This document shows positions 2,973 through 49,711 of a DNA stretch of 64,000 bases, one piece after another. The position numbers were made by a program, and so were the translations under genes. This DNA comes from Escherichia coli (lineage in GTDB: Bacteria > Pseudomonadota > Gammaproteobacteria > Enterobacterales > Enterobacteriaceae), in the NCBI RefSeq assembly GCF_036507355.1, contig NZ_AP027877.1; one strand, written 5' to 3'. Under the pieces are notes generated by a model. It was not told the origin of the DNA and made no database searches. It saw only the letters and a list, made by a program, of their open reading frames with translations. Numbering within the stretch: position 1 is the stretch's first letter; each line of letters starts with the position of its first letter.

Positions 2973-3004
2973 TAATGCATCTTTCCAGGGCATTTTGTGC
3001 ATAA

Positions 3005-3029
3005 AAACAGGGCGTCACGCCCTGTTTTG
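3005..3029 (+). terminator. Rho-independent terminator after mipA
   Basis: GC-rich hairpin ACAGGGCG-TCA-CGCCCTGT followed by TTTT, 35 bp after the mipA stop. Confidence 0.7.
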
Positions 3030-3916: not shown

Positions 3917-3966
3917 TGTTGATACGTGCCGGATGCATCGCACCCGGCACACAACATTGACGCAAA

Positions 3967-4882: not shown

Positions 4883-4913
4883 AAAAAAAAGAGCGACCGA
4901 AGTCGCTCTTTTT
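4883..4913 (-). terminator. Bidirectional rho-independent terminator downstream of gapA
   Basis: Hairpin AGAGCGAC-CGAA-GTCGCTCT flanked by an A8 run on one side and T5 on the other, so it reads as stem plus U-run on either strand. Confidence 0.75.
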
Positions 4914-6999: not shown

Positions 7000-7258
7000 G
7001 TGGTTCATCCCCTTTTTGCCGCGGCTATGAAGGGGATAGCCAACAATGACCCCACGACTCATCTCAATTATCTCGCCATGACCTGGCTAAGTCCCAGTCC
7101 GATCTCTTGCCGTCGCGTTCACACCTGAATGACTTCTCCTGAACTTAAGTCTCAGACCTATTTGGCCGGTAATCCCTCTCGAATTTGCTCTTTTTGCGCC
7201 CCGCCTTCCATCAACCTGTAACAGACCCAGCCATTTTCTGCGTAATTGTGATCTGAGT

Positions 7259-7290
7259 TGTAAAACGCAGATCATTATCTGTGTTTTACA
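7259..7290. repeat. 14 bp inverted repeat (hairpin or operator-like) upstream of ydjL
   Basis: TGTAAAACGCAGAT-CATT-ATCTGTGTTTTACA, one mismatch, about 80 bp upstream of the ydjL start. Confidence 0.5.
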
Positions 7291-7368
7291 GATTTAATGT
7301 TGATCTCAAAAATCATGTGGGTAAGTATGATGGCCATCTAAGCAAAACTAAACACAGAGGATGACGCA

Positions 7369-8445
7369 ATGAAAGCACTGGCTCGGTTTGGCAAGGCCTT
7401 TGGCGGCTACAAGATGATTGATGTCCCACAACCCATGTGTGGCCCGGAAGATGTAATGATTGAAATTAAAGCCGCGGCAATCTGCGGCGCAGACATGAAG
7501 CACTACAATGTCGATAGCGGTTCTGATGAGTTTAACTCTATCCGCGGCCATGAGTTCGCAGGTTGTATTGCGCAGGTTGGTGAAAAAGTCAAAGACTGGA
7601 AAGTGGGGCAACGCGTCGTATCGGATAACAGCGGTCACGTTTGCGGCGTTTGTCCGGCCTGTGAACAAGGTGATTTTCTGTGTTGTACAGAAAAAGTAAA
7701 CCTTGGTCTGGATAATAATACCTGGGGCGGTGGTTTTTCCAAATATTGTCTGGTTCCTGGTGAAATTCTCAAAATTCATCGTCATGCGTTGTGGGAAATC
7801 CCTGATGGTGTTGATTATGAGGACGCAGCCGTACTTGACCCTATCTGTAATGCCTACAAATCCATCGCGCAGCAATCGAAATTCCTCCCTGGTCAGGATG
7901 TAGTCGTCATCGGTACTGGCCCACTTGGGCTGTTCTCCGTACAAATGGCGCGGATTATGGGGGCGGTAAATATCGTCGTCGTTGGTCTACAAGAAGATGT
8001 GGCGGTCCGCTTCCCGGTTGCAAAAGAACTGGGTGCGACGGCAGTAGTAAATGGTTCTACCGAAGATGTGGTGGCGCGCTGCCAGCAAATTTGTGGCAAA
8101 GACAATCTGGGACTGGTGATTGAATGCTCCGGTGCCAATATCGCATTGAAACAAGCCATCGAAATGCTCCGCCCGAACGGGGAAGTGGTACGCGTTGGAA
8201 TGGGCTTCAAACCTCTTGATTTCTCGATTAATGACATTACCGCCTGGAACAAAAGCATCATTGGGCATATGGCCTATGACTCAACCTCATGGCGTAACGC
8301 TATCAGGCTATTAGCCAGCGGCGTTATCAAAGTCAAACCGATGATCACGCATCGTATCGGCCTGTCGCAATGGCGCGAAGGGTTTGATGCGATGGTCGAT
8401 AAAACCGCAATCAAAGTGATCATGACTTACGACTTTGATGAATAA
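7369..8445 (+). CDS. ydjL: Zn-dependent medium-chain dehydrogenase YdjL
   Basis: 358 aa; GHEFAG and Cys-rich structural-zinc motif (CGVCPACEQGDFLCC), Rossmann GTGPLG. Confidence 0.9.
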   Translation: MKALARFGKAFGGYKMIDVPQPMCGPEDVMIEIKAAAICGADMKHYNVDSGSDEFNSIRGHEFAGCIAQVGEKVKDWKVGQRVVSDNSGHVCGVCPACEQGDFLCCTEKVNLGLDNNTWGGGFSKYCLVPGEILKIHRHALWEIPDGVDYEDAAVLDPICNAYKSIAQQSKFLPGQDVVVIGTGPLGLFSVQMARIMGAVNIVVVGLQEDVAVRFPVAKELGATAVVNGSTEDVVARCQQICGKDNLGLVIECSGANIALKQAIEMLRPNGEVVRVGMGFKPLDFSINDITAWNKSIIGHMAYDSTSWRNAIRLLASGVIKVKPMITHRIGLSQWREGFDAMVDKTAIKVIMTYDFDE

Positions 8446-8471
8446 CAACTTTCCTGAAGGAACGTTATCGC

Positions 8472-9851
8472 ATGGAACAGATAACAAAACCGCATTGTGG
8501 TGCACGGCTGGATCGCTTACCGGATTGCCGCTGGCATTCGTCAATGTTTGCCATCGTCGCGTTTGGCTTGCTTGTCTGCTGGAGTAATGCCGTTGGTGGC
8601 TTGATCCTCGCGCAGCTGAAAGCGTTGGGCTGGACAGATAATTCCACCACAGCCACATTCTCAGCAATCACGACCGCCGGAATGTTTCTCGGTGCGCTGG
8701 TGGGCGGCATCATTGGCGACAAAACCGGTCGCAGAAATGCGTTCATCCTCTATGAGGCCATTCATATTGCCTCGATGGTTGTCGGTGCTTTCTCACCGAA
8801 TATGGATTTCCTTATTGCCTGCCGTTTTGTGATGGGAGTTGGGCTGGGAGCTTTACTGGTTACGCTGTTTGCTGGTTTCACCGAATATATGCCCGGTAGA
8901 AATCGTGGAACGTGGTCAAGTCGGGTTTCCTTTATTGGCAACTGGTCATATCCGCTCTGTTCATTGATAGCGATGGGACTCACGCCGCTGATTAGTGCAG
9001 AGTGGAACTGGCGGGTACAACTGCTTATCCCTGCAATATTGTCGCTTATCGCTACGGCGCTGGCCTGGCGCTACTTTCCTGAATCCCCGCGCTGGCTGGA
9101 ATCGCGCGGACGGTATCAGGAAGCCGAGAAAGTCATGCGGAGTATAGAAGAAGGCGTCATACACCAGACGGGTAAACCTTTGCCGCCCGTGGTTATTGCT
9201 GATGACGGTAAAACGCCACAAGCGGTGCCGTATTCAGCCTTACTGACAGGAGTATTACTGAAACGCGTGATATTAGGCTCTTGTGTGCTGATTGCCATGA
9301 ACGTTGTGCAGTACACACTAATTAACTGGTTGCCAACGATATTCATGACCCAGGGGATTAATTTAAAAGACTCGATTGTTTTAAATACCATGAGTATGTT
9401 TGGCGCGCCATTTGGCATTTTTATTGCCATGCTGGTGATGGATAAAATTCCGCGTAAAACAATGGGTGTGGGGCTATTAATCCTGATTGCGGTGCTCGGA
9501 TATATCTATTCACTGCAAACCAGTATGTTGCTCATAACGTTGATTGGTTTCTTCCTGATTACTTTTGTCTATATGTACGTTTGCTATGCCTCGGCAGTGT
9601 ATGTCCCTGAGATCTGGCCGACAGAGGCCAAACTCCGTGGCTCCGGTCTGGCGAATGCGGTAGGGCGAATCAGTGGTATTGCCGCACCTTATGCCGTTGC
9701 AGTGCTGCTCAGTAGTTATGGCGTTACGGGAGTCTTTATTCTTCTGGGGGCAGTTTCAATTATTGTCGCAATTGCTATCGCCACCATTGGAATCGAAACC
9801 AAAGGTGTCTCCGTTGAAAGTTTAAGTATTGATGCAGTAGCCAATAAATAA
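8472..9851 (+). CDS. ydjK: MFS sugar-type transporter YdjK
   Basis: 459 aa, multiple hydrophobic helices, MFS signature GDKTGRR. Confidence 0.9.
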   Translation: MEQITKPHCGARLDRLPDCRWHSSMFAIVAFGLLVCWSNAVGGLILAQLKALGWTDNSTTATFSAITTAGMFLGALVGGIIGDKTGRRNAFILYEAIHIASMVVGAFSPNMDFLIACRFVMGVGLGALLVTLFAGFTEYMPGRNRGTWSSRVSFIGNWSYPLCSLIAMGLTPLISAEWNWRVQLLIPAILSLIATALAWRYFPESPRWLESRGRYQEAEKVMRSIEEGVIHQTGKPLPPVVIADDGKTPQAVPYSALLTGVLLKRVILGSCVLIAMNVVQYTLINWLPTIFMTQGINLKDSIVLNTMSMFGAPFGIFIAMLVMDKIPRKTMGVGLLILIAVLGYIYSLQTSMLLITLIGFFLITFVYMYVCYASAVYVPEIWPTEAKLRGSGLANAVGRISGIAAPYAVAVLLSSYGVTGVFILLGAVSIIVAIAIATIGIETKGVSVESLSIDAVANK

Positions 9852-9867
9852 TACGGGTGGATTCAAA

Positions 9868-10911
9868 ATGAAAAATTCAAAAGCAATATTGCAGGTGCCG
9901 GGCACAATGAAAATTATTTCAGCAGAAATACCAGTGCCTAAAGAAGATGAAGTTTTGATTAAAGTAGAATATGTCGGTATTTGTGGTTCAGATGTACATG
10001 GTTTTGAATCAGGTCCGTTTATTCCGCCTAAAGACCCAAATCAAGAAATTGGCCTGGGTCATGAATGCGCCGGGACGGTTGTGGCTGTGGGAAGCCGCGT
10101 GCGCAAATTTAAACCGGGGGATCGGGTAAATATCGAACCTGGCGTTCCTTGCGGTCACTGTCGTTACTGTCTGGAAGGCAAATATAACATCTGCCCGGAC
10201 GTTGATTTTATGGCGACACAACCCAACTACCGCGGCGCATTAACGCACTATCTGTGTCATCCGGAGAGCTTTACTTACAAACTGCCCGACAATATGGACA
10301 CGATGGAAGGGGCGCTGGTGGAGCCTGCCGCAGTCGGGATGCATGCCGCGATGCTGGCAGATGTTAAACCGGGTAAGAAGATAATTATTCTGGGAGCAGG
10401 TTGTATTGGTTTGATGACGTTGCAAGCGTGCAAATGCCTGGGAGCAACGGAAATTGCCGTCGTTGATGTGCTGGAAAAACGTCTGGCAATGGCGGAACAG
10501 CTTGGTGCGACAGTGGTTATTAACGGCGCAAAAGAAGACACTATTGCACGCTGTCAGCAATTTACCGAAGACATGGGCGCAGATATTGTTTTCGAAACAG
10601 CGGGTTCTGCGGTCACCGTTAAACAGGCACCTTATCTGGTAATGCGCGGCGGTAAAATTATGATTGTTGGTACTGTACCCGGCGATTCGGCAATCAATTT
10701 CCTCAAAATAAATCGCGAAGTTACTATCCAGACGGTATTCCGCTACGCCAATCGTTATCCGGTCACGATTGAAGCTATTTCTTCAGGGCGATTCGATGTG
10801 AAATCGATGGTGACGCATATTTACGATTATCGGGATGTACAACAGGCATTTGAAGAGTCAGTTAACAATAAACGCGACATTATTAAAGGCGTTATTAAGA
10901 TTAGCGATTAA
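9868..10911 (+). CDS. ydjJ: Zn-dependent dehydrogenase YdjJ
   Basis: 347 aa; GHECAG zinc-ligand motif, CGHCRYC structural-zinc motif, GAGCIG Rossmann motif. Confidence 0.9.
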   Translation: MKNSKAILQVPGTMKIISAEIPVPKEDEVLIKVEYVGICGSDVHGFESGPFIPPKDPNQEIGLGHECAGTVVAVGSRVRKFKPGDRVNIEPGVPCGHCRYCLEGKYNICPDVDFMATQPNYRGALTHYLCHPESFTYKLPDNMDTMEGALVEPAAVGMHAAMLADVKPGKKIIILGAGCIGLMTLQACKCLGATEIAVVDVLEKRLAMAEQLGATVVINGAKEDTIARCQQFTEDMGADIVFETAGSAVTVKQAPYLVMRGGKIMIVGTVPGDSAINFLKINREVTIQTVFRYANRYPVTIEAISSGRFDVKSMVTHIYDYRDVQQAFEESVNNKRDIIKGVIKISD

Positions 10912-10931
10912 TTAATACGGGAGAACAGAAC

Positions 10932-11768
10932 ATGCTCGCAGATATCAGATATTGGGAAAACGATGCCACAAATAAACGTTATGCTATTGCCCATTTTAAT
11001 GTATGGAATGCAGAAATGTTGATGGGCGTTATCGACGCAGCCGAAGAAGCGAAATCACCGGTTATTATTTCTTTTGGCACAGGTTTTGTCGGCAACACCT
11101 CATTTGAAGATTTCTCTCACATGATGGTATCAATGGCACAAAAAGCAACGGTGCCGGTAATAACTCATTGGGATCATGGTCGGAGTATGGAGATTATTCA
11201 TAACGCCTGGACTCATGGTATGAATTCATTAATGCGTGATGCTTCCGCATTTGATTTCGAAGAAAATATTCGTTTAACCAAAGAGGCTGTTGATTTCTTC
11301 CATCCGCTGGGTATTCCGGTAGAGGCGGAATTAGGGCATGTCGGTAATGAAACCGTTTATGAGGAAGCTCTGGCGGGCTATCACTATACCGATCCTGACC
11401 AGGCGGCTGAATTTGTTGAACGTACGGGCTGTGACTCATTGGCTGTCGCCATCGGCAACCAGCATGGGGTTTATACGTCAGAGCCACAATTGAACTTTGA
11501 GGTCGTCAAACGCGTACGCGATGCCGTGTCTGTTCCGCTGGTTTTGCATGGCGCATCGGGGATCAGTGATGCCGACATTAAAACTGCAATTTCGTTGGGT
11601 ATCGCGAAAATCAACATCCATACGGAGCTCTGTCAGGCCGCAATGGTCGCAGTGAAAGAAAACCAGGATCAGCCTTTCCTGCATTTAGAACGTGAAGTAC
11701 GTAAAGCTGTAAAAGAACGGGCATTGGAAAAAATTAAACTGTTCGGTTCTGATGGCAAAGCGGAATAA
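10932..11768 (+). CDS. ydjI: Class II (metal-dependent) ketose-bisphosphate aldolase YdjI
   Basis: 278 aa; similarity to the tagatose/fructose-bisphosphate aldolase class II family recognised. Confidence 0.88.
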   Translation: MLADIRYWENDATNKRYAIAHFNVWNAEMLMGVIDAAEEAKSPVIISFGTGFVGNTSFEDFSHMMVSMAQKATVPVITHWDHGRSMEIIHNAWTHGMNSLMRDASAFDFEENIRLTKEAVDFFHPLGIPVEAELGHVGNETVYEEALAGYHYTDPDQAAEFVERTGCDSLAVAIGNQHGVYTSEPQLNFEVVKRVRDAVSVPLVLHGASGISDADIKTAISLGIAKINIHTELCQAAMVAVKENQDQPFLHLEREVRKAVKERALEKIKLFGSDGKAE

Positions 11769-11772
11769 TGAT

Positions 11773-12720
11773 ATGGATAATCTCGACGTTATTTGTATAG
11801 GTGCCGCTATTGTTGATATTCCATTGCAACCGGTCAGTAAAAATATCTTTGATGTGGATTCTTATCCTCTTGAAAGAATCGCAATGACCACCGGGGGTGA
11901 TGCAATAAATGAAGCAACAATTATTTCTCGTCTGGGCCATCGTACAGCATTAATGAGCCGTATTGGTAAAGATGCCGCAGGGCAGTTTATTCTCGACCAT
12001 TGCCGCAAAGAGAATATTGATATTCAAAGCCTGAAGCAGGACGTCAACATAGATACCTCTATTAATGTTGGACTGGTGACGGAGGATGGCGAGCGGACGT
12101 TTGTCACAAACCGTAACGGCAGTCTGTGGAAATTGAATATTGACGATGTTGATTTTGCGCGGTTTTCCCAGGCGAAATTATTATCACTGGCCAGTATTTT
12201 CAACAGTCCACTATTGGATGGTAAAGCGCTAACAGAAATTTTTACGCAAGCTAAAGCCCGGCAGATGATTATCTGTGCCGATATGATCAAACCGCGGTTG
12301 AATGAAACGCTGGATGATATTTGCGAAGCATTGAGTTATGTCGATTATCTGTTTCCTAATTATGCCGAGGCAAAATTACTCACCGGGAAAGAGACACTGG
12401 ATGAAATTGCTGACTGCTTTCTTGCGTGCGGCGTAAAAACGGTGGTGATTAAAACGGGTAAAGACGGCTGCTTTATCAAGCGTGGTGACATGACGATGAA
12501 GGTGCCGGCGGTCGCAGGAATAACCGCCATCGACACCATTGGCGCGGGCGATAACTTTGCTTCAGGTTTTATTGCGGCACTGTTAGAAGGCAAAAATCTG
12601 CGTGAATGCGCACGCTTTGCCAATGCAACGGCGGCTATCTCGGTTCTAAGCGTCGGTGCCACCACCGGCGTAAAAAACAGAAAGCTGGTCGAACAATTGC
12701 TGGAAGAATACGAAGGATAA
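11773..12720 (+). CDS. ydjH: PfkB-family sugar kinase YdjH
   Basis: 315 aa from ATG 11773 (MDNLDVICIG); ribokinase/PfkB family with GAGD motif near the C-terminus. Confidence 0.88.
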   Translation: MDNLDVICIGAAIVDIPLQPVSKNIFDVDSYPLERIAMTTGGDAINEATIISRLGHRTALMSRIGKDAAGQFILDHCRKENIDIQSLKQDVNIDTSINVGLVTEDGERTFVTNRNGSLWKLNIDDVDFARFSQAKLLSLASIFNSPLLDGKALTEIFTQAKARQMIICADMIKPRLNETLDDICEALSYVDYLFPNYAEAKLLTGKETLDEIADCFLACGVKTVVIKTGKDGCFIKRGDMTMKVPAVAGITAIDTIGAGDNFASGFIAALLEGKNLRECARFANATAAISVLSVGATTGVKNRKLVEQLLEEYEG

Positions 12721-12729
12721 TGAAGGCAA

Positions 12730-13710
12730 ATGAAAAAAATACCTTTAGGCACAACGGATATTACGCTTTCGCGAATGGGGTTGGGGACATGGGCCATTGG
12801 CGGCGGTCCTGCATGGAATGGCGATCTCGATCGGCAAATATGTATTGATACGATTCTTGAAGCCCATCGTTGCGGCATTAATCTGATTGATACTGCACCA
12901 GGATATAACTTTGGCAATAGTGAAGTTATCGTCGGTCAGGCGTTAAAAAAACTGCCCCGTGAACAGGTTGTAGTAGAAACCAAATGCGGCATTGTCTGGG
13001 AACGAAAAGGAAGTTTATTCAACAAAGTTGGCGATCGGCAGTTGTATAAAAACCTTTCCCCGGAATCTATCCGCGAAGAGGTAGAAGCCAGCTTGCAACG
13101 TCTGGGTATTGATTACATCGATATCTACATGACGCACTGGCAGTCGGTGCCGCCATTTTTTACGCCGATCGCTGAAACTGTCACAGTGCTTAATGAGTTA
13201 AAGGCTGAAGGGAAAATTCGCGCTATAGGCGCTGCTAACGTCGATGCTGACCATATCCGCGAGTATCTGCAATATGGTGAACTGGATATTATTCAGGCGA
13301 AATACAGTATCCTCGACCGGGCAATGGAAAACGAACTGCTGCCGCTATGTCGTGATAATGGCATTGTGGTTCAGGTTTATTCCCCGCTAGAGCAGGGATT
13401 GTTGACCGGCACCATCACTCGTGATTACGTTCCGGGCGGCGCTCGGGCAAATAAAGTCTGGTTCCAGCGTGAAAACATGCTGAAAGTGATTGATATGCTT
13501 GAACAGTGGCAGCCACTTTGTGCTCGTTATCAGTGCACAATTCCCACTCTGGCACTGGCGTGGATATTAAAACAGAGTGATTTAATCTCCATTCTTAGTG
13601 GGGCTACTGCACCGGAACAGGTACGCGAAAATGTCGCGGCACTGAATATCAACTTATCGGATGCAGACGCAACATTGATGAGGGAAATGGCAGAGGCCCT
13701 GGAGCGTTAA
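12730..13710 (+). CDS. ydjG: Aldo-keto reductase YdjG
   Basis: 326 aa; aldo-keto reductase family sequence recognised. Confidence 0.9.
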   Translation: MKKIPLGTTDITLSRMGLGTWAIGGGPAWNGDLDRQICIDTILEAHRCGINLIDTAPGYNFGNSEVIVGQALKKLPREQVVVETKCGIVWERKGSLFNKVGDRQLYKNLSPESIREEVEASLQRLGIDYIDIYMTHWQSVPPFFTPIAETVTVLNELKAEGKIRAIGAANVDADHIREYLQYGELDIIQAKYSILDRAMENELLPLCRDNGIVVQVYSPLEQGLLTGTITRDYVPGGARANKVWFQRENMLKVIDMLEQWQPLCARYQCTIPTLALAWILKQSDLISILSGATAPEQVRENVAALNINLSDADATLMREMAEALER

Positions 13711-13846
13711 ATACTCAACACGATTCACCTCTGTTTCTGTGAAAACTGTGATGAAAATCTGTGATTCAAACAGGTTATTTTGAAAGTAAACATCGGTTAT
13801 GCGATAATCGCGCTAATGTGATGTAAAAAGATACAGGGGTGTAATC

Positions 13847-14605
13847 GTGGCGGCAAAAGACAGGATTCAGGCAATTAAGCAAATGGTTGCCAACGATAAA
13901 AAGGTGACAGTCTCAAATTTGAGTGGGATTTTTCAGGTAACCGAAGAAACCATTCGCCGCGATCTTGAGAAGCTGGAAGATGAAGGCTTTTTGACCAGAA
14001 CCTATGGTGGTGCTGTTTTAAATACAGCGATGTTGACGGAGAATATCCATTTTTATAAGCGCGCTTCATCGTTTTATGAAGAGAAGCAGCTTATTGCACG
14101 CAAGGCACTACCCTTTATCGACAATAAAACCACCATGGCAGCCGATTCCAGTAGTACCGTAATGGAATTGCTCAAATTGTTACAGGACCGTAGTGACCTG
14201 ACGTTGCTAACCAACTCGGCGGAAGCGATTCATGTTCTGGCTCAGTCAGAAATTAAAGTCGTTTCAACGGGTGGGGAACTAAACAAAAATACACTTTCAC
14301 TGCAAGGAAGAATTACTAAAGAGATCATCAGCCGCTACCATGTCGATATCATGGTAATGAGTTGTAAAGGTCTTGATATTAACAGCGGCGCGCTGGACTC
14401 TAATGAAGCGGAAGCTGAAATCAAAAAGACAATGATCCGTCAGGCGACAGAAGTTGCGTTATTGGTTGATCACTCTAAGTTTGATCGCAAAGCTTTTGTC
14501 CAGTTAGCTGACTTTAGTCATATTAATTACATAATAACTGATAAATCACCGGGTGCAGAGTGGATAGCATTTTGCAAAGACAATAATATCCAGCTGGTGT
14601 GGTAA
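13847..14605 (+). CDS. ydjF: DeoR-family transcriptional regulator YdjF
   Basis: 252 aa; N-terminal helix-turn-helix (VSNLSGIFQVTEETIRRDLEKLE) and DeoR C-terminal sugar-phosphate sensor domain. Confidence 0.9.
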   Translation: MAAKDRIQAIKQMVANDKKVTVSNLSGIFQVTEETIRRDLEKLEDEGFLTRTYGGAVLNTAMLTENIHFYKRASSFYEEKQLIARKALPFIDNKTTMAADSSSTVMELLKLLQDRSDLTLLTNSAEAIHVLAQSEIKVVSTGGELNKNTLSLQGRITKEIISRYHVDIMVMSCKGLDINSGALDSNEAEAEIKKTMIRQATEVALLVDHSKFDRKAFVQLADFSHINYIITDKSPGAEWIAFCKDNNIQLVW

Positions 14606-14722
14606 TTTAAGCACACGTTGTCAATATTATTTGTTCCTGCGCCTGGAAATAAAATGATGATAAAGATGCGGCAAGTGAATTTGCCGCAATTGCTACCTTT
14701 TTTAGCAAATCCGAGGCACCCA

Positions 14723-16081
14723 ATGGAACAATATGATCAAATTGGCGCAAGACTGGACCGCTTGCCTTTGGCCCGGTTTCATTATCGTATATTTGGTATT
14801 ATAAGCTTTAGTCTGTTATTAACAGGGTTTTTGAGTTACTCCGGTAATGTCGTCTTAGCAAAGCTGGTAAGCAATGGATGGTCAAATAATTTCCTCAATG
14901 CCGCCTTTACCTCGGCATTAATGTTTAGTTATTTCATCGGCTCTCTTACCGGTGGGTTCATCGGTGATTACTTTGGGCGGCGCAGGGCGTTTCGCATAAA
15001 TCTTCTCATCGTCGGTATTGCTGCAACAGGGGCCGCTTTTGTCCCTGATATGTACTGGCTCATCTTCTTTCGCTTCCTGATGGGAACAGGAATGGGGACG
15101 CTGATTATGGTTGGCTATGCCTCATTTACGGAGTTTACCCCCGCGACGGTGCGTGGAAAATGGTCCGCGCGGCTCTCATTTGTTGGTAACTGGTCGCCCA
15201 TGCTGTCTGCGGCGATAGGCGTGGTGGTTATCGCTTTTTTTAGTTGGCGGATAATGTTTCTGCTGGGTGGTATTGGCATACTGTTAGCCTGGTTTCTCTC
15301 AGGTAAATACTTTATCGAGTCGCCACGATGGCTGGCAGGGAAAGGGCAAATCGCAGGTGCAGAATGCCAACTTCGTGAAGTAGAGCAGCAAATTGAAAGA
15401 GAGAAGAGTATTCGTTTACCCCCGCTTACTTCGTATCAGAGCAACAGCAAAGTTAAAGTAATCAAGGGTACTTTCTGGCTCCTGTTTAAAGGTGAAATGT
15501 TACGACGTACATTAGTCGCGATTACTGTTTTAATTGCAATGAACATTTCGCTTTATACCATCACCGTATGGATACCGACCATATTTGTTAACTCCGGCAT
15601 TGATGTCGATAAATCAATATTAATGACCGCTGTTATTATGATTGGCGCTCCGGTAGGAATATTTATTGCGGCATTAATTATTGATCATTTTCCTCGTCGG
15701 TTATTTGGCTCCACCTTACTTATTATTATTGCCGTGTTAGGCTATATCTATTCAATTCAGACTACAGAGTGGGCGATTTTAATCTATGGCCTGGTGATGA
15801 TCTTCTTTTTATACATGTATGTTTGCTTCGCGTCGGCGGTTTATATCCCGGAGCTTTGGCCAACGCATTTACGCCTGCGCGGTTCGGGTTTCGTTAATGC
15901 CGTCGGACGGATCGTCGCAGTCTTCACGCCCTATGGCGTTGCGGCATTATTAACACATTATGGGTCGATCACGGTGTTTATGGTGCTTGGTGTCATGTTA
16001 GTGCTCTGTGCGCTGGTTCTCTCTATTTTTGGCATCGAAACGCGGAAGGTGTCGCTGGAAGAGATTTCTGAGGTGAACTAA
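14723..16081 (+). CDS. ydjE: MFS transporter YdjE
   Basis: 452 aa from ATG 14723 (MEQYDQIGARLDRL), paralogous to ydjK; the ORF-track upstream extension has no support. Confidence 0.88.
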   Translation: MEQYDQIGARLDRLPLARFHYRIFGIISFSLLLTGFLSYSGNVVLAKLVSNGWSNNFLNAAFTSALMFSYFIGSLTGGFIGDYFGRRRAFRINLLIVGIAATGAAFVPDMYWLIFFRFLMGTGMGTLIMVGYASFTEFTPATVRGKWSARLSFVGNWSPMLSAAIGVVVIAFFSWRIMFLLGGIGILLAWFLSGKYFIESPRWLAGKGQIAGAECQLREVEQQIEREKSIRLPPLTSYQSNSKVKVIKGTFWLLFKGEMLRRTLVAITVLIAMNISLYTITVWIPTIFVNSGIDVDKSILMTAVIMIGAPVGIFIAALIIDHFPRRLFGSTLLIIIAVLGYIYSIQTTEWAILIYGLVMIFFLYMYVCFASAVYIPELWPTHLRLRGSGFVNAVGRIVAVFTPYGVAALLTHYGSITVFMVLGVMLVLCALVLSIFGIETRKVSLEEISEVN

Positions 16082-16132
16082 ATCTTTCGTTGATGGCGTC
16101 CATTACCAGATGTACTACCGACGTGTTTTATC

Positions 16133-16165
16133 TGGCCTACAATGCCAGTACAGAATTGTAGGCCA
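16133..16165. repeat. Perfect 11 bp inverted repeat between convergent ydjE and pncA (probable bidirectional terminator or REP-like unit)
   Basis: TGGCCTACAAT-N11-ATTGTAGGCCA; the GGCCTAC motif is typical of REP ends. Confidence 0.55.
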
Positions 16166-16173
16166 GCGTAAAA

Positions 16174-16815
16174 TTACCCCTGCGTCTCTTCCCAGTCTGC
16201 CAGCGTATATAGCGTTGCCCCAGCTGCTGACATTTCCATAAACGCGTGCGCACTGTCCTGTGGCTGGATATTCACCCCACGACAGCCATCGGTAATCACG
16301 TTTACCTTATAACCTAACTGTAACGCGTCCAGCACGGTAAACTTCACGCAATAGTCAGTAGCCAGGCCCATAACGATCAATTCATCGATTTCATGATCGC
16401 GTAACCAGTCATCAAGCGAGGTTTTCTGCCGACGGCCGTTATCAAAAAAGGCACTGTAACTGTCAACTAAAGGATTTTCGCCTTTATGGAACACCGCTGC
16501 GATCGCTTTTTGGTTCAGTAACGGATGTAATTGTGCGCCTTCACTGTTCTGCACACAGTGATCTGGCCAGAAGGTTTGTGGCAAACCGTCGAGTTGACCT
16601 GGCGTATAAGGCTCTACACAGTGCTGACTGGCAAAACTGCCGTGATTCGCTGGGTGCCAGTCCTGACTGGCGATAACCGCTTCACCGCGCGACAGGCACC
16701 AGTCAATCAGGCGGTTAGCGACATCCACCGTACTGTCACCCTCCGGCACGGCGAGCGCGCCACCAGCACAGAAATCATTTTGTAAATCGACCAGTAACAG
16801 GGCGCGAGGGGGCAT
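16174..16815 (-). CDS. pncA: Nicotinamidase/pyrazinamidase PncA
   Basis: 213 aa from ATG 16815 (MPPRALLLVDLQNDFCAGG), isochorismatase-fold nicotinamidase. Confidence 0.93.
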   Translation of the reverse strand: MPPRALLLVDLQNDFCAGGALAVPEGDSTVDVANRLIDWCLSRGEAVIASQDWHPANHGSFASQHCVEPYTPGQLDGLPQTFWPDHCVQNSEGAQLHPLLNQKAIAAVFHKGENPLVDSYSAFFDNGRRQKTSLDDWLRDHEIDELIVMGLATDYCVKFTVLDALQLGYKVNVITDGCRGVNIQPQDSAHAFMEMSAAGATLYTLADWEETQG

Positions 16816-24870: not shown

Positions 24871-24965
24871 TTGCCGGGGGCGCTGCGCTTGCCCGGCCTA
24901 CATTAGAGCGTAACTGCAATGAATTGTGCCCATTTGTAGGCCTGATAAGCGTAGCGCCATCAGGC
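24871..24965. repeat. REP/BIME repetitive extragenic palindromic element
   Basis: TTGCCGGGGGCGCTGCGCTTGCCCGGCCTAC ... GTAGGCCTGATAAGCGTAGCGCCATCAGGC, canonical REP motifs between convergent ynjI and gdhA. Confidence 0.85.
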
Positions 24966-45207: not shown

Positions 45208-45269
45208 TAACAGGCGGGAAGCGATTAAAAAAGAGGCGGGTCGATGACAAAGGTTACACCGTCTGACGT

Positions 45270-45366
45270 GCTACGCTTGTCAGGCCTATTCGACTCCTGC
45301 AATGTATTGAATTTGCATAGTTTTGTAGGTCGAATAAGGCGTTCACGCCGCATCCGGCGTGAACAA
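45270..45366. repeat. REP/BIME element between cho and nadE
   Basis: GTAGGTCGAATAAGGCGTTCACGCCGCATCCGGC is a canonical REP unit, with a second partial unit upstream. Confidence 0.85.
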
Positions 45367-47631: not shown

Positions 47632-47686
47632 GGTGATGCTGCCAACTTACTGATTTAGTGTATGATGGTGTTTTTGAGGTGCTCCA

Positions 47687-47962
47687 GTGGCTTCTGTTTC
47701 TATCAGCTGTCCCTCCTGTTCAGCTACTGACGGGGTGGTGCGTAACGGCAAAAGCACCGCCGGACATCAGCGCTATCTCTGCTCTCACTGTCGTAAAACA
47801 TGGCAACTGCAGTTCACTTACACCGCTTCTCAACCCGGTACGCACCAGAAAATCATTGATATGGCCATGAATGGCGTTGGATGCCGGGCAACAGCCCGCA
47901 TTATGGGCGTTGGCCTCAACACGATTTTACGTCACTTAAAAAACTCAGGCCGCAGTCGGTAA
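47687..47962 (+). CDS. insA: IS1 InsA (transposition inhibitor; N-terminal part of the InsAB' transposase)
   Basis: 91 aa, [39 protein letters not shown], zinc finger plus helix-turn-helix. Confidence 0.97.
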
Positions 47963-48384
47963 CCTCGCGCATACAGCCGGGCAGTGACGTCATCGTCTGC
48001 GCGGAAATGGACGAACAGTGGGGCTATGTCGGGGCTAAATCGCGCCAGCGCTGGCTGTTTTACGCGTATGACAGGCTCCGGAAGACGGTTGTTGCGCACG
48101 TATTCGGTGAACGCACGATGGCGACGCTGGGGCGTCTTATGAGCCTGCTGTCACCCTTTGACGTGGTGATATGGATGACGGATGGCTGGCCGCTGTATGA
48201 ATCCCGCCTGAAGGGAAAGCTGCACGTAATCAGCAAGCGATATACGCAGCGAATTGAGCGGCATAACCTGAATCTGAGGCAGCACCTGGCACGGCTGGGA
48301 CGGAAGTCGCTGTCGTTCTCAAAATCGGTGGAGCTGCATGACAAAGTCATCGGGCATTATCTGAACATAAAACACTATCAATAA
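47881..48384 (+). CDS. insB: IS1 InsB frame (expressed as the InsAB' transposase by -1 frameshift at TTAAAAAACTC)
   Basis: 167 aa frame [16 protein letters not shown]...HYLNIKHYQ; slippery A6C site lies near the end of insA. Confidence 0.95.
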
Positions 48385-48399
48385 GTTGGAGTCATTACC

Positions 48400-49665: not shown

Positions 49666-49711
49666 GTAAGGTGGTAAGGTCACTCCCCAGGGGACGTGAC
49701 CTTATCCATAT

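Follow-up and report, generated by a model that had tools for sequence, protein, structure and literature searches.

Binding and cleavage by TnpA(REP) need a GTAG tetranucleotide and a mismatch in the stem. The conserved GTAG 5′ of the palindrome foot marks REPs (Ton-Hoang et al., PMC3333891), and REP units of the types Y, Z1 and Z2 occur in E. coli in BIMEs such as BIME-2 and BIME-1 (RIP/RIB). At the RNA level, two described systems are close to the locus analyzed here. The first are the overlapping bidirectional terminators detected by SEnd-seq (Ju et al. 2019). The second are protective 3′ stem-loops (Dar and Sorek 2018; REP model of Peters et al. 2012), where Rho-dependent transcripts end just 3′ of stable, U-less and exonuclease-blocking stem-loops, with rut sites adjoining downstream (PMC6061677).

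In this study, we analyzed the 92-nt gap between the convergent genes ydjE and pncA (site 1) in a window, i.e. a stretch of E. coli DNA of 64,000 nt, and compared it with two further intergenic sites of the window, ynjI/gdhA (site 2) and nadE/cho (site 3). The element at site 1 is ordinary and already known: it is a catalogued E. coli repeat remnant, namely REP132 plus a stray tail, and its hairpin is listed as a mapped bidirectional terminator of MG1655. We consider it quite probable that site 1 is a degenerate BIME whose tail-tail hairpin sets both mRNA 3′ ends, with Rho acting downstream and exonucleases trimming back. Gene names follow RefSeq, as annotated on E. coli chromosomes nearly identical to the window. 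MG1655 coordinates, which run in reverse of the window, were converted by alignment. The 3′-end and Rho data are those of MG1655; the SEnd-seq table and the Rho-binding screen were used as reproduced in the preprint supplement of Harris et al. 2026 (10.64898/2026.03.23.713779). The features of site 1 are the following:

14618–16081, + strand: ydjE, MFS transporter (limits of the open reading frame; the annotated start lies further inside)
15989–16120, − strand: C-rich stretch 3′ of the hairpin in pncA sense, corresponding to the Rho-binding peak given in the preprint supplement, C/G ratio 1.42
16104–16139, − strand: decayed REP of the Z2 type, ortholog of REP132, reading GTAG-first as GTAGGCCAGATAAAACACGTCGGTAGTACATCTGGTA
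16129–16169: overlapping 3′-end region, palindrome ± 3 nt, SEnd-seq entry 151 of the preprint supplement (10.64898/2026.03.23.713779)
16132–16166: palindrome hairpin, arms 16132–16143 and 16155–16166, loop 16144–16154
16141–16157: linker of 17 nt joining the CTAC tail to the GTAG tail, AATGCCAGTACAGAATT
16158–16166, + strand: orphan REP tail GTAGGCCAG, lacking an adjoining REP body and ending 7 nt short of the pncA stop codon
16167–16300, + strand: C-rich, G-poor stretch 3′ of the hairpin in ydjE sense (antisense to the pncA 3′ end), C/G ratio 1.6–1.9
16174–16815, − strand: pncA, nicotinamidase/pyrazinamidase

The gap is bounded by the stop codons of ydjE (ORF end at 16081, + strand) and pncA (16174, − strand). 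A preliminary description of this DNA had reported a perfect palindrome between the two convergent genes, and the coordinates bear this out: a perfect inverted repeat of 12 bp with an 11-nt spacer is present, the left arm CTGGCCTACAAT (16132–16143) being 100% complementary to the right arm ATTGTAGGCCAG (16155–16166). Each arm consists of a REP tail (CTGGCCTAC on the left, GTAGGCCAG on the right) plus 3 nt of the linker. The palindrome is the pairing of two REP tails, and the hairpin of the REP unit is another structure. A chance palindrome was ruled out by two counts. The window contains the pair GGCCTAC-N5-35-GTAGGCC two times, at sites 1 and 2, where 0.02 occurrences are expected, and at least two were obtained in 0 of 100 shuffles; moreover, perfect inverted repeats of at least 12 bp with short loops are found three times in the whole 64 kb. 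The hairpin folds with −19.3 kcal/mol in the + strand RNA and −20.9 kcal/mol in the − strand RNA (z −4.5 and −5.6), and none of 200 shuffles folded as stably. The stem of REP132 itself is far weaker (−9.0 and −9.6 kcal/mol; z −2.2 and −1.5), and when the entire gap is folded, the tail-tail hairpin prevails over it. Rfam contains no family for site 1 and returned just far-sub-threshold matches to miRNA models, as for a generic hairpin. Two open reading frames running across the palindrome were rejected: one of 43 aa (16110–16241, + strand) is interrupted by a stop in MG1655 at its fourth codon, and one of 38 aa on the − strand overlaps pncA.

The REP-type nature of site 1, which had also been proposed, is supported by a curated ortholog, but it does not extend to the palindrome itself, which is no REP unit. 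According to the preprint supplement (10.64898/2026.03.23.713779), the curated REP132 of MG1655 (1852563–1852598, ‘Convergent ydjE pncA’) corresponds to 16104–16139 of the window. Site 1 agrees with this REP of the Z2 type in locus, coordinates, the GTAG 5′ of a CCAGAT/ATCTGG foot, the length of 36–37 nt and the extragenic position between a convergent pair. The segment 16104–16139 folds, though weakly, as a stem-loop with the foot CCAGAU/AUCUGG within the 30–40 nt of a REP palindrome, and GTAGGCC lies at 16134–16140 (− strand) immediately 5′ of the foot stem. REPs are extragenic and typically lie 3′ of genes, in convergent or tandem pairs. All three sites are extragenic, site 2 between the convergent genes ynjI and gdhA and site 3 between nadE and cho, which are in tandem.

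For consensus searches, Y, Z1 and Z2 consensus sequences were used, of which Y and Z1 have identical copies and Z2 has a copy one base off in 200 kb of MG1655; REP profiles were built from Y and Z units of unrelated MG1655 regions, 16 of each type. The best Z2-consensus match in the window is 16104–16140 with 25 of 37 positions, CTAC-ending on the + strand and including a compensated T-A to A-T change in a foot-stem pair. Among 200 simulated windows, 2 had this score as their maximum (p ~0.01 per window). The Z profile matched the window copy at positions 14–37 only and non-significantly (E 0.37), whereas it covered MG1655 REP132 (E 0.069) and the ortholog of Escherichia sp. E1V33 (E 7.9e-6) at full length. 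A formal search against the REP consensus, by which the preliminary description could be refuted, yielded a partial match that comes near to refuting the claim for the window alone. Judged from these scores, the orthologs form a clear decay series starting from a recognizable Z2 REP. Compared with a Z2 REP, the unit of site 1 is strongly decayed: the upper stem is gone, its own hairpin is worth only −9 kcal/mol and it has no significant match to the profile. For the window, REP membership rests on orthology and on curated annotation, which exists for site 1 (REP132) and site 2 (REP131, 1843725–1843817). The feature tables of NC_000913.3 contain no features in the three gaps, known REPs included; since the table is empty even at REP131, absence of annotation there is uninformative.

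A REP, a short linker and a truncated second REP make site 1 a partial BIME. Its second REP amounts to the 9-nt tail GTAGGCCAG, so that site 1 falls short of a BIME, while sites 2 and 3 are BIMEs. Genuine tail-to-tail linkers in MG1655 have 13–18 nt or 32–36 nt, and the 17 nt found here belong to the short (S-type) class. The arrangement CCTAC, 17 nt, GTAGG is tail-to-tail as in BIME-2, and the BIME-2 linkers of REP325 also have 17 nt. In contrast to BIME-2, the second REP is cut to its 9-nt tail, the element is present as a single copy with no tandem array, and the tails, instead of forming a Y/Z2 pair, both belong to one unusual type, CTGG. Also, the ends of the linker at site 1 are complementary, by which the tail pairing reaches 12 bp, whereas it is extended by 0–2 bp in the sampled genuine BIMEs.

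The elements at the other two sites are closer to BIME-1:

24872–24964: REP131 in the ynjI/gdhA gap, with a left unit at 24872–24901 (+ strand), a 34-nt L-like linker at 24902–24935 and a right Z1 unit at about 24936–24965 (− strand)
45260–45359: element of the BIME-1 type in the nadE/cho gap, with a Z1-like unit at 45260–45289 (+ strand), an L linker at 45290–45324 and a Y unit at 45325–45359 (− strand)

Both contain inverted repeats. The sequence of site 2 is identical to MG1655 and GTAGGCC is present on both units; the right unit matches the Z profile with E 0.0028, and the left unit TGCCGGGGGCGCTGCGCTTGCCCGGCCTAC is neither Y nor Z and resembles the REP type of Enterobacter and Lelliottia. 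At site 3, the Y unit agrees with the consensus at 32 of 35 positions (profile E 1.4e-10 over 45325–45358) and the Z1-like unit at 24 of 30, including a compensated stem change. The cores of site 3 are GGCCTAT and GTAGGTC, its GTAG motifs reading GTAGGTC and ATAGGCC. Therefore, the GGCCTAC/GTAGGCC core that had been ascribed to all three sites is present at sites 1 and 2, but carries one mismatch per half at site 3. Of the REP units previously placed at 24871–24965 and 45270–45366, the former agrees with REP131, exactly at 24872–24964, whereas at site 3 a strong Y unit exists but the span is shifted to 45260–45359.

Sites 2 and 3 share with BIME-1 the Z1- or Y-type units around an L linker of 34–35 nt. 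An IHF-like sequence, ATTCAATACATTG at 45300–45312, one mismatch from the IHF consensus, is found in the 35-nt linker of site 3, which is also the sole Rfam match above the gathering score in the window (ES036, RF02751). No WATCAANNNNTTR within one mismatch occurs in the 17-nt linker of site 1 and no IHF match in the 34-nt linker of site 2, so the suggestion of IHF sites holds for site 3 and not for sites 1 and 2. The combination typical of BIME-1/RIP, an L linker of about 35 nt with an IHF consensus, is present at site 3 only. Unlike BIME-1, site 2 has a linker lacking an IHF match and a left unit that is neither Y nor Z, and site 1 has none of the BIME-1 features. By numbering, site 3 is probably REP130. 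Given REP132, REP131 and the strong Y-type REP of site 3, the view of all three sites as normal REP-type features of E. coli was essentially right.

In the published SEnd-seq data of MG1655, as reproduced in the preprint supplement, the 3′ ends of ydjE and of pncA-ansA overlap at 1852533–1852573, which corresponds to 16129–16169 and places the ends 3 nt beyond the stem on both strands. The site 1 hairpin is entry 151 of that table, an overlapping bidirectional terminator in the sense of Ju et al. 2019 (ydjE:pncA:ansA) recorded in both growth phases, log and stationary; its 3′ flank contains 1 U, and it shares 10 nt with REP132. The ortholog of site 1 in MG1655 thereby belongs to this class according to the reproduced table. 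That REP-type elements mark the ends of transcription units, as had been predicted along with 3′-end mapping as the appropriate check, is supported by these data, since the listed ends of both MG1655 transcripts coincide with the palindrome ± 3 nt. The base mean expression is 57 for ydjE and 1083 for pncA; as ydjE is poorly expressed, few reads underlie its 3′ end. The hairpin of the window differs from that of MG1655 at 1 of 35 positions, and to judge by sequence the 3′-end and Rho data of MG1655 should apply to the strain of the window.

Neither strand provides the hairpin with a U-tract (CGTAAAAT on +, ATAAAACA on −), and a scan with a terminator consensus gave no site at 16132–16166; on these two grounds it was discarded as an intrinsic terminator. 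In this respect, site 1 differs from classic bidirectional intrinsic terminators, which are flanked by an A-tract and a U-tract and of which two are found in the window (3004–3028 and 4886–4913). Data on Rho are available for the pncA-sense strand. An in-vitro Rho-binding peak of MG1655 (1852582–1852713, ± NusG), listed in the preprint supplement, starts 12 nt beyond the stem, and Adams et al. (PMC7815308) reported a Rho termination region defined with bicyclomycin at 1852976 (+), antisense to ydjE, with a Rho score of 4.05. In the accessible supplementary text of Adams et al., Term-seq tables included, pncA does not appear, which is weak evidence. On the other strand, 16167–16300 (+) is a candidate rut region of ydjE transcripts by its base composition. 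With the protective 3′ stem-loops, site 1 shares the U-less stem-loop, the excess of C over G, the Rho peak and the bicyclomycin-sensitive read-through. It differs from them in that exonuclease trimming is a predicted step here and in that direct Rho evidence comes from one strand only, that of pncA.

The mechanism most likely at work at site 1 would, by analogy, be that of Dar and Sorek (PMC6061677). In pncA sense, the pncA stop codon is followed by 7 nt, the 9-nt tail left over from a lost REP (CTGGCCTAC), the 17-nt short linker and the Z2 unit REP132, decayed but of full length; the two tails and 3 complementary linker bases per side form the 12-bp hairpin. Transcribed in either direction, this hairpin would become the steady-state 3′ end of the ydjE and ansA-pncA mRNAs. 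As it lacks a U-tract, RNA polymerase presumably reads through it in most cases. Rho would then load on the C-rich RNA just downstream and terminate transcription within the antisense of the neighboring gene, and 3′-to-5′ exonucleases would trim the RNA back until the hairpin blocks them and stabilizes the mRNA. The trimming step, as well as Rho action on the ydjE strand, is thus a predicted part of the process.

To place site 1 in a broader context, pncA loci were collected from 80 Enterobacterales species. Right after the pncA stop codon come a complete REP, a short linker and then a GTAG­G-first REP in several genera, among them Lelliottia, several Enterobacter, Escherichia sp. ESNIH1 and a Citrobacter, so that a full-length REP occupies in other genera the pncA-proximal position where the window has the orphan tail. 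The pattern CCTAC-N5-40-GTAGG lies at most 160 nt from the pncA stop codon in 7 of 78 loci, compared with 0.002 per 160 nt elsewhere in those loci. Citrobacter sp. On2M has a tails-only palindrome of 13 bp, as in E. coli, and in E. albertii the palindrome is replaced by a hairpin with a T-run 3′ of it. Across ten Escherichia haplotypes, TGGCCTAC and GTAGGCCA are invariant, and invariant columns make up 20 of 24 in the arms but 12 of 38 in loop and REP body (Fisher p 8e-5). Among these haplotypes, 9 of the 12 hairpin pairs are constant and none changes on both sides, so that compensatory changes are absent, and a search for covariation in both helices (tail-tail and REP132) found none. Since no pair changes on both sides, covariation provides evidence neither for nor against an RNA structure, and conservation could reflect the sequence of the REP tails (RAYT recognition, gene conversion) instead of RNA structure.

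The locus also varies in gene content. Among 5,419 complete E. coli genomes, about 1,100 align with the window only from 16169 onward. In three such genomes that were inspected, ydjL-ydjE is wholly missing and yeaC lies beside pncA, while the palindrome is retained along with the greater part of the REP-like sequence. The break in homology coincides with the REP132 head, which places the element at the border of a 9.1-kb segment, the ydj cluster, that is present or absent among strains. At the far end of the cluster, the search for a second REP or a direct repeat gave just an 11-nt match (10 of 11), probably by chance.

The main rival to Rho termination with trimming is a bidirectional terminator driven by collision, where the hairpin would pause opposing polymerases, and head-on and then rear-end collisions would release the transcripts with no need of Rho or trimming. 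Such a model includes a stem-loop as the element needed to fix the collision position (10.1101/2022.10.23.513370), and in the reproduced SEnd-seq table the locus is found among the overlapping bidirectional terminators between convergent genes. However, collision works best for highly expressed pairs (10.1101/2022.10.23.513370) and ydjE is weakly expressed, and bicyclomycin-sensitive read-through antisense to ydjE together with Rho binding beyond the hairpin indicates that polymerases coming from pncA pass it. Because low ydjE expression and the documented read-through weaken this model, we regard it as unlikely. The same read-through speaks against a canonical intrinsic bidirectional terminator, for which a stable, GC-containing hairpin between convergent genes and the listed 3′ ends 3 nt beyond the stem on both strands could be cited. 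With no U-tract on either strand, no match in the consensus scan and a single U counted in the 3′ flank of the SEnd-seq entry, this explanation is very improbable. Rho termination downstream followed by trimming back to the tail-tail hairpin remains the reading that we prefer.

Other alternatives concern the question of whether the element has a function in RNA at all. Site 1 could be a neutral relic, a decaying BIME once inserted by a REP-associated transposase, where 3′ ends map because, like any stable hairpin, it stops exonucleases, and whose tails are kept by homogenization with other REPs or by RAYT recognition of GTAG and not by selection for a local function. The lack of covariation in the helices, the decaying REP body and the gain and loss of BIMEs at other loci of the window (REP129 is missing here) all fit this idea, and because conservation is limited to precisely the columns of the family-wide GGCCTAC/GTAGGCC tails, it retains some probability. 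Nevertheless, among haplotypes that diverge strongly in other respects, strains without the ydj cluster included, conservation is far higher in the arms than in loop and body, and related species carry a BIME or a hairpin with T-run at the same place, which suggests that a 3′-end hairpin is required there; a purely neutral origin therefore appears improbable to us. A role at the DNA level, as a site of protein binding or recombination (gyrase, IHF, Pol I, cruciform, or junction for gain and loss of the 9.1-kb ydjL-ydjE cluster), would account for the homology break between cluster-positive and cluster-negative strains at the REP132 head, and strain-specific loops tied to BIMEs as well as REP-REP recombination have been reported (PMC1525189). 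It is very unlikely, though, as site 1 has no IHF consensus within one mismatch and is no complete BIME-2, the known gyrase target, as the far cluster end has no second REP copy, and as one junction is too few to establish a mechanism. Finally, the tail-to-tail hairpin may itself be the conserved functional unit, a BIME decayed to two GGCCTAC tails which is kept across Escherichia haplotypes, those of the roughly 20% of E. coli without the ydj cluster included, as a minimal U-less bidirectional 3′-end element and also marks the recombination junction of cluster gain or loss. We put this forward as a tentative and rather doubtful possibility; if true, the tails-only palindrome of Citrobacter sp. 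On2M would hint at a recurring end-state.

For site 1 as a degenerate BIME with a 3′-end hairpin, the import beyond correct annotation is little and no new question is opened. The refinements are that the palindrome is formed by two paired REP tails with a REP body decayed below detection by profile search, that the element lies exactly at the edge of the common ydj-cluster polymorphism, and that IS1 is unrelated to the REPs. This fits current views of REPs as context-dependent 3′-UTR elements and of BIMEs as borders of variable segments.

Regarding insertion elements, IS1 activity had been thought relevant to the REPs of the window, which is not supported: its single IS1 copy (47632–48399) lies inside chbC and away from the REPs. 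The elements known to target REPs in E. coli are IS1397 and IS621, and in S. flexneri only 6 of 101 copies of IS1 were associated with REPs (PMC1525189). A Z2-like match at 48113–48149 falls within this IS1 and was rejected as an intragenic REP. As for further REP loci of MG1655, the BIME REP129 (chbG/katE) is absent in this strain, with a different hairpin in its place, and a hairpin equivalent to REP133 is located at about 3918–3962.

In about 1,100 of the 5,419 complete E. coli genomes, the match to the window begins only at position 16169, beside the perfect 12-bp palindrome hairpin between the convergent ydjE and pncA genes (site 1, 16132-16166). The loci compared with this part of the window were as follows.

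Window ~7010-16110: ydjLKJIHGFE cluster, 9.1 kb, from ydjL to ydjE
Comparison loci: L004 (5846-6005), L094 and L008

The whole cluster was absent from all three genomes inspected among these partial matchers, and in each of them yeaC directly adjoins pncA. On the pncA side, the homology between cluster-bearing and cluster-less genomes breaks at the head of REP132, the decayed Z2-type REP reaching into the left arm of the hairpin. The palindrome is kept in the cluster-less haplotype with a 10-bp stem and another loop; REP-like sequence also survives there, over about 31 nt. The ydjE transporter gene adjoining the element is decaying in certain lineages: it is an annotated pseudogene in O157:H7 strain 2159 and in ETEC4077, the N-terminus missing in one strain and an internal stop present in the other.

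Across the Enterobacteriaceae (pncA loci L005-L084), BIMEs recur in the roughly 160 nt that follow the pncA stop codon, with a REP type that differs by genus, while in E. albertii and many others a hairpin followed by a T-run takes their place. This pattern is consistent with a 3′ hairpin of one kind or another being needed at this position. In Lelliottia and Enterobacter, pncA is followed by a REP type (GCCGGGTGGCGCTGCGCTTACCCGGCCTAC) with almost the same sequence as the left unit of REP131 in the ynjI/gdhA gap (site 2; TGCCGGGGGCGCTGCGCTTGCCCGGCCTAC, 24872-24901), a unit undetected by the Y and Z profiles built from E. coli.

At site 3, the BIME-1-type element in the nadE/cho gap, the L linker is hit by the Rfam 'sRNA' family ES036/CssrF (RF02751); the match covers 45282-45324 (minus strand) and scores 42.9 bits, above the gathering score, and therefore this family appears to describe the BIME-1 linker. 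A weak match to the same family lies at 24905-24943 (plus strand). At 45325, site 3 reads GTAGGTCG in the window versus ATAGGTCG in MG1655; the GTAG motif, which is required by the REP transposase, is intact in the window strain and mutated in K-12.

The REP129 locus is a BIME presence/absence polymorphism. In MG1655, the chbG/katE gap comprises 257 nt and contains REP129, made up of one REP and a BIME-1; in the window strain it comprises only 46 nt (49666-49711), occupied by an unrelated hairpin (TAAGGTCACTCCCC/GGGACGTGACCTTA). The 3′ end of katE also differs between the two strains. Further elements in the window are listed here.

47632-48399: complete IS1, 768 bp, single copy, inserted in chbC, both terminal repeats exact
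3004-3028: perfect 12-bp short-loop palindrome, AAAACAGGGCGT/ACGCCCTGTTTT
4886-4913: perfect 12-bp short-loop palindrome, AAAAAGAGCGAC/GTCGCTCTTTTT
~3918-3962: hairpin GTGCCGGATGCATCGCACCCGGCAC in the yeaE/yeaD gap, equivalent of MG1655 REP133 and of SEnd-seq bidirectional terminator entry 152

The ORF sizes on both flanks of IS1 point to a deletion beside it that spans most of chbC and extends into chbF. Within insB of this IS1, GCGACGCTGGGGCGTCTTAT (48113-48149) shares 19 of 20 positions with the Z2 REP core (E-value 0.0025 against the Z profile); its location in IS1 coding sequence rules it out as an intragenic REP.

Besides site 1, the window holds only the two perfect 12-bp short-loop palindromes listed, both with the A-runs and T-runs typical of classic bidirectional intrinsic terminators, whereas the site 1 hairpin is U-less. 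The REP-annotated REP133 equivalent, missing from the sites named in the preliminary description, carries no GGCCTAC tail, and its outer arm is unlike that of MG1655.
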